64,000 bases of DNA, from assembly GCA_965115955.1 (NCBI GenBank), contig OZ220473.1, positions 2,389,463 to 2,453,462 on the forward strand. Reading direction: 5' to 3'. Below the pieces are notes generated by a model that was not told where the DNA came from, did not search any database, and saw only the letters and a program-made list of their open reading frames with translations. Made by a program: the position numbers and the translations under genes. The first letter of the stretch is position 1. Every line of letters starts with the position of its first letter. This DNA comes from Dehalococcoidia bacterium. GTDB taxonomy: Bacteria > Chloroflexota > Dehalococcoidia > Lucifugimonadales > UBA3495. Positions 32,501 to 32,933 of this stretch are shown here, piece after piece.

Positions 32501-32933
32501 CACGGCCACACCGACAGGTTCGTCGAGCGCGGCCGCTGCCACCACGCCGCCGAACACGAACACGCCGACGCGGACAGGTTCGTCGAGGGCGGACAGGGGG
32601 CCGACGCCGACGCTGCTGTCCGTCGGCGCGCCGACAGCCACGTCACTGCCGACGGCTGCGCCGGCGGTCACGCCGACGCCGACAGCCGCGCCGTTCGGCT
32701 CGCCGTCGGCAGTGTTCGGGGGGCTGGGGCCGCGGCTGGTGCGGGTCTGGCATCTGGAATCGGCAACCCAGACGTGGCGGTTCTACGACCCGGAGCTGAA
32801 GGGCGAGGGGCTGAACACGCTGGACAGGGTTTCCGCCGGCCAGATAGTGGTGATCATCATCAGCGGGGAAACGCCGGTCGAGTTTCGGGGCGTAACGCTG
32901 TATCCGGGCATGAACCTGGTGTTCCTCGAATAG
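29562..32933 (+). CDS. paralog family member F: mosaic protein (E-type N-terminal modules, 3 FN3 domains, long PT-repeat stalk, conserved C-terminal domain)
   Basis: 1123 aa. First ATG at 29565, alternative start at 29658. FN3 signatures include [40 protein letters not shown] and [27 protein letters not shown]. Confidence 0.85.
29617..29632 (+). repeat. homopolymeric tract C16
   Basis: Counted directly. Confidence 0.95.
32163..32432. repeat. 9 x 30-nt in-frame tandem repeat ([10 protein letters not shown] unit)
   Basis: Unit ACGCCGAC[G/A]GCCACGCCGACGCC[G/A]ACGCA[T/C] repeated head-to-tail. Confidence 0.9.

Follow-up and report, generated by a model that had tools for sequence, protein, structure and literature searches.

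A domain of 76 residues, encoded seven times in the 64,000-nt stretch of the Dehalococcoidia contig OZ220473.1 analyzed here (the window; GenBank assembly GCA_965115955.1), apparently represents an undescribed, lineage-restricted family of extracellular domains; shared surface-protein modules are, as a general kind, already known. Six copies form the C termini of the clustered paralogs A–F, and a seventh, diverged copy lies in a small lipoprotein encoded by the 175-aa open reading frame (ORF) 8492–9019 on the minus strand. The existence of the domain, its conservation, its confidently predicted fold, the secretion signals of its carriers and the syntenic lipoprotein variant form the established part of this account. 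From these features we tentatively infer binding, a proteinaceous partner and a role for the lipoprotein: the domain may be a docking module by which secreted surface proteins are kept at the envelope, its candidate partner being the lipoprotein variant.

Dehalococcoidia, abundant marine lineages included, are largely uncultured monoderms, many of them without peptidoglycan, which raises the question of how a surface layer (S-layer) and further surface proteins stay attached to the membrane. Run over the six-frame translation of the window, a profile derived from the seven copies returned these seven and no more (E 5e-36 to 4e-47, against E > 1 for the next match). The segment 32703–32933 translates to the 76-residue peptide quoted in the first-pass annotation, followed by a stop codon, and the paralog copies are 89–100% identical in protein sequence to copy F (A 95%, B 100%), in line with that annotation's claim of a C-terminal domain of about 75 aa common to the six paralogs; the B and F domains differ by a single synonymous codon. 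It had also recognized a diverged homologue in the lipoprotein. This copy is 29–34% identical to the paralog copies, carries a 15-residue insertion after the ‘YDP’ motif, and is found by BLASTP (E 3e-7). Its homology is independently backed by an hhalign match between profiles of the standard-type and insertion-type subfamilies built from the sequences of other organisms (probability 99.3%, E 2e-20).

The family was counted by an exhaustive HMMER search over 1.84 billion representatives, which returned 594 clusters at E ≤ 1e-3; tightening the cut-off to 1e-10 left 114, and to 1e-30 left 2. A word-index search queried with the window's seven sequences had matched only the source genome's own 73-aa fragment. 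A wide profile search thus recovers a real family. Its members are 22–57% identical to the window copy and share the consensus ..F.pLGDnLvRVW.fD..tQ.WsFYDP.p.f..fNTLt....G.iy.i.v......l.G..LY.GxN.i.., in which one Asn is invariant and five positions are nearly so. All seven window copies match the family profile (motif LGDnL.rVW..D...Q.W..YDP ... G.N near the end). Every member with a named source comes from Dehalococcoidia or Chloroflexota, the few named homologues being an ‘IPT/TIG domain-containing protein [Dehalococcoidia bacterium]’, a ‘hypothetical protein [Chloroflexi bacterium]’ and a ‘hypothetical protein [Dehalococcoidia bacterium]’. Genome loci were drawn from a collection of species-representative genomes for the close subfamily only, and all 16 belong to Dehalococcoidia metagenome-assembled genomes. 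A scan of viral contigs found no locus of the close subfamily and a single locus of the GWNLI subfamily, at a contig end, which is too little to claim phage use. A lineage-specific domain carried by hundreds of secreted proteins offers a sequence handle with which to list the ‘surfaceome’ from metagenomes.

Profile libraries gave the domain no name. Scanned against a 2025 copy of Pfam-A at the family gathering thresholds, neither the domain alone nor any of 73 diverse members scanned singly produced a match, the best E values (0.005–0.3) being at chance level; the profiles of SLH, CWB2, LysM and other wall-binding repeats were among those that did not match, and no dockerin match fell within the domain itself. 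NCBIfam release 20, with its models for LPXTG, PEP-CTERM, PGF-CTERM, MYXO-CTERM and the C-terminal domain (CTD) of type IX secretion system (T9SS) substrates, likewise left the domain unmatched. The earlier statement that no named family could be assigned is therefore borne out in both libraries, neither of which holds a confident match of the kind that would have overturned it. Our literature search found nothing on the domain itself, only background on Dehalococcoidia envelopes. The domain was also said to lack a hydrophobic anchor and a sortase- or PEP-CTERM-type motif, and this agrees with the NCBIfam result and with the hydrophobic runs, which reach only 6 residues, so that the domain is no membrane anchor. 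The paralog proteins end instead in a predicted β-strand (..NLVFLE). The six window paralogs contain no C-terminal transmembrane (TM) segment, lipobox or sortase motif, and no other candidate retention element was seen in them.

AlphaFold2, run on copy F with a 73-sequence alignment, predicts a compact domain with a mean predicted local distance difference test score (pLDDT) of 95.7 and a predicted template modeling score of 0.85, all five models agreeing. The predicted elements are a helix (residues 2–11) and strands at 12–19, 24–28, 48–53, 59–61, 64–66, and 69–74. This run supersedes an earlier, unstable one with seven sequences (pLDDT 87, 72, 54, 47, and 45). The small β domain proposed in the first-pass annotation is thus seen in the model, as a mostly β structure with one N-terminal helix, and nothing in it points to disorder. 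With a fold match taken as Foldseek E ≤ 1e-3 or a TM-score ≥ 0.5 over the domain, the PDB yielded no significant neighbor (best E 0.17, query TM-score ≤ 0.37), and in BFVD the best E was 0.2, the lone query TM-score of 0.52 belonging to a 926-aa enhancin with E 0.89 and probability 0.47. The model therefore suggests a compact autonomous fold, a short N-terminal helix packed on six β-strands, without a detected relative in the PDB or BFVD, and the domain is a candidate new small fold. Homology to Kelch repeats (PF01344) was considered and rejected. The domain hairpin ‘L.rVw.fD..t..WsfydP’ resembles the Kelch strand pair ‘L.sVe.YDp.t..W’, but only about 22–40 residues match, and the domain is one 76-aa unit present once or twice per protein rather than a series of several (5–7) tandem propeller blades. 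The PDB profile search matched only this short hairpin (per-repeat i-Evalue at least 6.8) and became significant only when summed over six designed repeats; in Pfam, Kelch_1 matches 3 of the 73 members, and Kelch_1 and Kelch_6 together 4, at E of about 0.03 and below threshold.

The lipoprotein reads as a minimal carrier of the domain. A lipoprotein was defined by a signal peptide ending in a lipobox of the form [LVI][ASTVI][GAS]C, which the gene at 8492–9019 contains (..AAGLFAC/GS), so that the product is predicted to be lipidated. The gene lies between those for TrpRS and inositol monophosphatase (IMPase), and the same position is kept in the loci L017, L018, and L019 of three related assemblies, within a shared block that reads DnaK ... 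ECH-PAC2-DinB-TrpRS-Lpp-IMPase-FAD-CoA-transferase ... RecA. Gene callers had shortened the orthologues to 91–96 aa; their full ORFs encode a lipobox (..LGIIAC/GG in L018 and ..IGILAC/GG in L019), a Pro/Thr/Glu linker of about 120 aa and an insertion-type domain. What the first-pass annotation called a distant lipoprotein is, by its sequence and gene order, a member of a conserved syntenic subfamily and not a stray relative. Insertion-type domains occur in 10 of the 150 top representatives, and all the full-length ones have lipoprotein-like N termini, mostly in proteins of 175–245 aa. From one genome to another the lipoprotein domain keeps 46–49% identity where TrpRS and IMPase keep 81–91%, a fast divergence that fits an exposed or co-evolving surface module. 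A scan of metagenome contigs for the lipoprotein subfamily gave 155 pattern matches, none of which was confirmed.

Across the family the domain is found on proteins that look secreted. A hydrophobic N-terminal leader or a lipobox is present in 65 of the 150 representatives, most of the others appearing fragmentary, and the partner domains are extracellular (TIG, cadherin, fn3, and BACON), with a cohesin match below threshold. In the window, each of the seven copies is preceded by 61–305 aa rich in Pro/Thr or Pro/Glu, with a Pro plus Thr fraction (P+T) of 0.41–0.65, in keeping with the stalk that the first-pass annotation had described. The claim that this always holds fails family-wide: the 40 residues upstream of the domain have a median P+T of 0.2, a value of 0.4 being attained in just 11 of 123 proteins. 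Most members have TIG or other Ig-like domains directly upstream, which makes the analogy to Gram-positive proteins with a stalk beside a wall anchor local to the window.

Other architectures occur outside the window. A group of 26 representatives comprises acidic, TIG-rich proteins of 830–1310 aa with the leader MNSxIGKSTGIALLMAAALLAALFAMGVFS; from their sequences they resemble major proteins of an S-layer. This leader is conserved (P0006, P0008, P0015–P0018, P0022, and others) in proteins less than 50% identical overall, and the window paralogs carry a related one, ‘[RK]xIGxAL + hydrophobic’. Such conservation is atypical of ordinary signal peptides, and the segment may be retained or specially recognized. 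Cadherin-type giants of 500–2700 aa end in two diverged copies, a ‘first’ and a ‘second’ type that are each conserved across orthologues, which suggests a fixed pair. In three proteins (P0002, P0072, and ORF 3954–5510 of locus L007) a single chain holds both an insertion-type and a standard-type copy, arranged in one of two ways, and in P0002 and the L007 protein further domains follow, which places the copies internally. The L007 protein is secreted, with a dockerin-like ‘DQNCNGIIDIADL’ near its N terminus, the two copies 18 residues apart, and then a TIG-like domain. The sole N-terminal placement was seen in L020 (1–891; IMGVR_UViG_3300009091_001004, at a contig end), where a signal peptide is followed by the domain (aa 47–119, HMM E 2e-18), a Pro/Thr linker and an unknown domain. 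The contig is predicted to be viral, and the locus may be host DNA at a prophage edge. Since the domain also occurs on lipidated proteins, in tandem, internally and N-terminally, it is neither a membrane anchor nor a strictly C-terminal signal.

The paralog array consists of two divergent triplets (A, B, and C on the minus strand; D, E, and F on the plus strand) that flank hspR-like, grpE and dnaK genes around 20701–23849. They are absent at the corresponding position in L017–L019, whose backbone is otherwise kept, and are therefore a lineage-specific expansion or insertion around the dnaK locus. Their middle parts differ: B, E, and F share a cadherin-like region at 90–97% identity, C and D have fn3 domains and reach 67% identity, and F also has fn3 domains. 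The six domains are 92–100% identical in DNA, and this identity extends into the flanks, for about 100 nt after the stop codon, a common terminator-like hairpin included, and, in A, B, D, and F, across 150–300 nt of upstream linker. The 5′ ends are shared as well, over the leader and about 100 nt upstream, which together with the shared 3′ sequence suggests that the gene ends were homogenized while the middles differ. In 14 of the 15 copy pairs, non-synonymous codon differences are at least as numerous as synonymous ones. Because identity passes the stop codon and codon differences show this pattern, the near-invariance of the copies, which is real (89–100% as noted), is on sequence grounds largely the product of recent duplication or gene conversion of a cassette of linker, domain and terminator. 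The case for constraint rests on the 594-cluster family and not on the near-identity of the six paralogs.

In the docking arrangement that we tentatively favor, the domain would hold or organize secreted proteins at the cell envelope non-covalently, through another protein, and that partner would most likely be another copy of the same fold. The lipoprotein, with its lipid anchor, flexible linker and insertion-bearing domain, would serve as the membrane tether; its membership of a conserved, syntenic subfamily makes it the leading candidate partner. The large proteins would attach to it, or to one another, by way of their standard-type domains. Clients in the window would be the six paralogs, whose Pro/Thr stalks differ in length and bear variable fn3 or cadherin-like heads, and elsewhere the acidic TIG-rich S-layer-like proteins. 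A binding module rather than a C-terminal sorting signal is indicated by the lipidated carriers, the tandem, internal and N-terminal copies and the lack of a processing gene, and the paired ends of the giants and the mixed-type chains hint that the fold may bind another copy of itself. Dehalococcoidia are reported to be S-layer-bearing monoderms, many of whose lineages have lost peptidoglycan (PMC10284905). Such cells need a wall-independent means of retaining surface proteins. The envelope-attachment or partner-binding module suggested at first pass thus remains the best reading, shorn of the Gram-positive stalk-anchor analogy and of a role as membrane anchor. Pairing of the lipoprotein variant with the standard domain makes it a concrete, testable anchoring hypothesis, and the structure and partner of a domain whose function we have so far inferred should be of note to specialists in the cell envelope or the Chloroflexota.

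Two known systems resemble docking in outline. In the dockerin–cohesin pairs of cellulosomes, many proteins carry a small docking module, usually at the C terminus, that fits into a partner anchored on the cell, but dockerin is Ca-binding and helical and cohesin has a different fold, whereas here both partners would share one fold. In the SlaA/SlaB S-layers of Sulfolobales, a membrane stalk protein, SlaB, with a coiled-coil stalk and a C-terminal TM segment, holds the outer canopy. The likeness lies in a wall-less envelope on which a membrane-tethered stalk protein retains secreted surface proteins; SlaB has no homology to the proteins described here, and the anchor proposed is N-terminally lipidated.

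Several observations weigh against docking. The leader's hydrophobic core of about 21 residues could be an uncleaved membrane anchor, which would make the domain a distal tip and not a retention element. Tandem copies are just as typical of avidity-based glycan binders. Mixed-type fusion proteins are few (three), and P0002 is possibly mis-assembled or a read-through ORF. Finally, the genes for S-layer-like proteins (f1-type) adjoin another anchor candidate, a collagen-like protein with a C-terminal TM segment. This conserved gene lies downstream of the TIG-rich, S-layer-like CTD protein in L001 (5380–6201), L003 (5394–6149) and L004 (5374–6246) and its product combines a signal peptide and a Met-rich domain with GXY repeats of collagen type and a TM helix at the C terminus; a trimeric membrane stalk, and with it an alternative anchor, is possible. 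Both the collagen-like neighbor and the S-layer-like N-terminal region are absent from the window and from L017–L019.

A bolder form of docking, which we consider unlikely as it stands, has copies on different polypeptides co-assembling into a defined complex whose membrane-tethered member is the lipoprotein variant, giving a protein-only, peptidoglycan-independent anchoring of S-layer and accessory surface proteins that would be based on a fold lacking any solved relative. If true, arrays with swappable heads and variable stalks would amount to a cassette system that diversifies what the cell displays. Speculatively, Pro/Thr/Ala stalks would give a hydrolysate composition like that of Tepidiforma, a cultured member of the Dehalococcoidia in whose cell-wall hydrolysate Thr, Ala, and Pro dominate and neither diaminopimelic acid nor Lys is found (PMC10284905).

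The domain could instead be a module resembling a lectin or carbohydrate-binding module (CBM), one that binds a carbohydrate or other non-protein polymer of the envelope, or an environmental substrate, with no pairing between CTDs. We regard this as possible though on balance improbable. The conserved aromatics (W16, W25, F/Y27–28, and, in most subfamilies, GWN) would, like the invariant Asn, suit a surface that binds sugar, but the aromatics may just form the hydrophobic core. Tandem copies and flexible position are typical of binding modules, and the domain keeps the company of adhesin-like Ig, cadherin and BACON domains; neither Pfam, PDB nor BFVD, however, shows any sequence or structural likeness to CBM or lectin families, and a lipoprotein made of linker plus domain goes unexplained unless it tethers the membrane to a polymer layer. 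Wall-polymer binders are, together with the two systems above, the closest functional parallels. CWB2 (PF04122), known from the Cwp family of Clostridioides difficile, occurs in three tandem copies that build a trimer-like unit and binds the wall polysaccharide PSII. Like the present domain it is one constant envelope-retention module on clustered paralogs and an S-layer protein with differing heads; here there is no sequence similarity to it, and the domain, which stands alone or in a pair, also comes in a form borne by a lipoprotein. SLH (PF00395) is similarly carried by S-layer and other surface proteins of monoderms and anchors them non-covalently, but it is helical, comes in triplets and binds a pyruvylated secondary cell-wall polymer on peptidoglycan. 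The present domain is instead predicted to consist of a helix and six strands and has no Pfam match, and many Dehalococcoidia lack peptidoglycan (PMC10284905).

Rather less likely is a self-associating node, a homo-oligomerization domain through which its carriers become part of the S-layer lattice, the lipoprotein being just another client. That the domain ends the S-layer-like proteins with the conserved leader (26 of the 150 representatives) speaks for such a node, and conserved tandem pairs suggest that contact between domains is possible. The evidence largely overlaps with that for docking, which makes the two hard to separate. The near-identical copies kept in all six paralogs would also suit a lattice but are explained by recent conversion.

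A C-terminal secretion or sorting signal, read and perhaps removed by a dedicated machine in the manner of the β-sandwich CTD of about 80 aa on type IX substrates, is very improbable. Placement does suggest one, as 139 of 173 domain matches from the top 150 proteins stop no more than 5 residues short of the C terminus, and the T9SS CTD (Por_Secre_tail, TIGR04183) is likewise a β-rich module of about 80 aa at the extreme C terminus of diverse secreted proteins. That CTD, however, is a secretion signal of Bacteroidota, which are diderm, and is cut off by a sortase-like enzyme. The present domain matches neither it nor any other sorting-signal model, occurs in tandem, internally (L007, P0002) and N-terminally (L020), and sits on lipoproteins that already bear a targeting signal. 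It is thus not the single, strictly C-terminal module of Bacteroidota with T9SS genes, its placements being varied and its named hosts Dehalococcoidia, which are monoderm (PMC10284905). Neither the window nor L001–L019 show a conserved sortase-like or other processing gene close by, and the neighbors in the window and related loci are housekeeping genes only. Judged by sequence and profile tests, all negative, and with several defining features contradicted, the domain belongs to none of CWB2, SLH, dockerin–cohesin, SlaB or T9SS CTD. That the tail might have no specific function, as a by-product of recent duplication of a linker-plus-tail cassette, could be read from the paralog DNA identity into the 3′ untranslated region (UTR) and from the codon differences, but this idea deserves next to no credence and is refuted by family-wide conservation, at 25–57% identity, across hundreds of clusters, varied architectures and a syntenic lipoprotein, together with the highly confident fold prediction.

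Table 1 Coordinates of the domain copies, their carriers and associated features in the window.
Feature	Position	Strand	Basis
CTD of paralog F, aa 1048–1123	32703–32930	+	Stop codon 32931–32933; profile match, AlphaFold2 model of this copy
CTD of paralog A	14280–14507	−	Profile match; 95% aa identity to F
CTD of paralog B	15852–16079	−	Profile match; 100% aa identity to F
CTD of paralog C	18412–18639	−	Profile match
CTD of paralog D	26685–26912	+	Profile match
CTD of paralog E	28984–29211	+	Profile match
Insertion-type domain variant, 94 aa, sole folded part of lipoprotein 8492–9019	8495–8776	−	Profile match, BLASTP, hhalign
Lipoprotein signal peptide with lipobox (MRIFASFLLIALIAAGLFAC/GS)	8960–9019	−	Sequence; L018 and L019 orthologues alike
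Lipoprotein Pro/Glu/Thr-rich linker, 61 aa, with 36-bp DNA tandem repeat inside	8777–8959	−	
ORF of paralog A	14277–15413	−	
ORF of paralog B (likely start 17958–17960)	15849–18062	−	
ORF of paralog C (two fn3 domains N-terminally)	18409–19914	−	
ORF of paralog D (likely start 24723; fn3 domains)	24627–26915	+	
ORF of paralog E (likely start 27379)	27280–29214	+	
ORF of paralog F	29562–32933	+	
Conserved N-terminal leader of F, about 21 hydrophobic residues, then ...VSAQA; also in A–E	29661–29810	+	Sequence
Pro/Thr stalk of F, 266 aa, P+T 0.65, DNA tandem repeats	31905–32702	+	
Pro/Thr stalk of A, 150 aa	14508–14957	−	
Pro/Thr stalk of B, 275 aa; 30-bp unit ×10.2	16080–16904	−	
Pro/Thr/Ala stalk of C, 80 aa	18640–18879	−	
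Pro/Thr stalk of D, 305 aa	25770–26684	+	
Pro/Thr stalk of E, 174 aa	28462–28983	+	
Stalk tandem-repeat tracts	16344–16649, 32163–32438, 26241–26396, 14772–14925, 25809–26249		
3′ untranslated segment common to the six paralogs, including a G+C-rich terminator-like hairpin	32934–33050	+	DNA comparison

The paralog leader may be a Sec signal peptide or a signal-anchor, and could be either cleaved or retained. Upstream of it, the ORFs of B, D, E, and F run 32–34 codons beyond the likely start (17961–18062 on the minus strand, 24627–24722, 27280–27378, and 29562–29660); with start codons as predicted, the conserved peptide of these extensions is probably a conserved 5′ UTR read as an ORF. At the other end, the shared sequence extends about 100–120 nt downstream of every paralog stop codon (14160–14276 on the minus strand for A), and its hairpin, GAAGGGGCGGC...GCCGCCCCTTC, is G+C-rich and resembles an intrinsic terminator.

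The stalks are built of DNA tandem repeats. The 30-bp unit is present 9.2 times in F, 5.2 times in D, and about 3.6–4 times in A, in addition to the B tract listed in Table 1, and the D stalk has a second repeat with a 42-bp unit present 10.4 times. Stalk length, which spans 80–305 aa among the paralogs, may be variable. This Pro/Thr-repeat DNA yields long spurious ORFs in all six frames (14247–15023, 16029–17135, 25443–27023, 31107–32432, and similar), Arg-rich or Gly/Val-rich in translation, and public gene calls split such genes, the CTD of gene A being recorded as a separate 73-aa protein, P0001. The family thus has some value for annotation, as the domain appears in public records as orphan ORFs of 70–130 aa. 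A further 91-aa ORF fragment, P0004, is 55% identical to F and appears to sit elsewhere in the source genome, which, if it is counted, would appear to hold at least eight carriers. A few kilobases downstream of the array are genes for an NHL-repeat protein (36568–37443) and an AAA_21/AAA_15 (AbiEii-like) ATPase (38381–39835), both on the minus strand and apparently unrelated to it.

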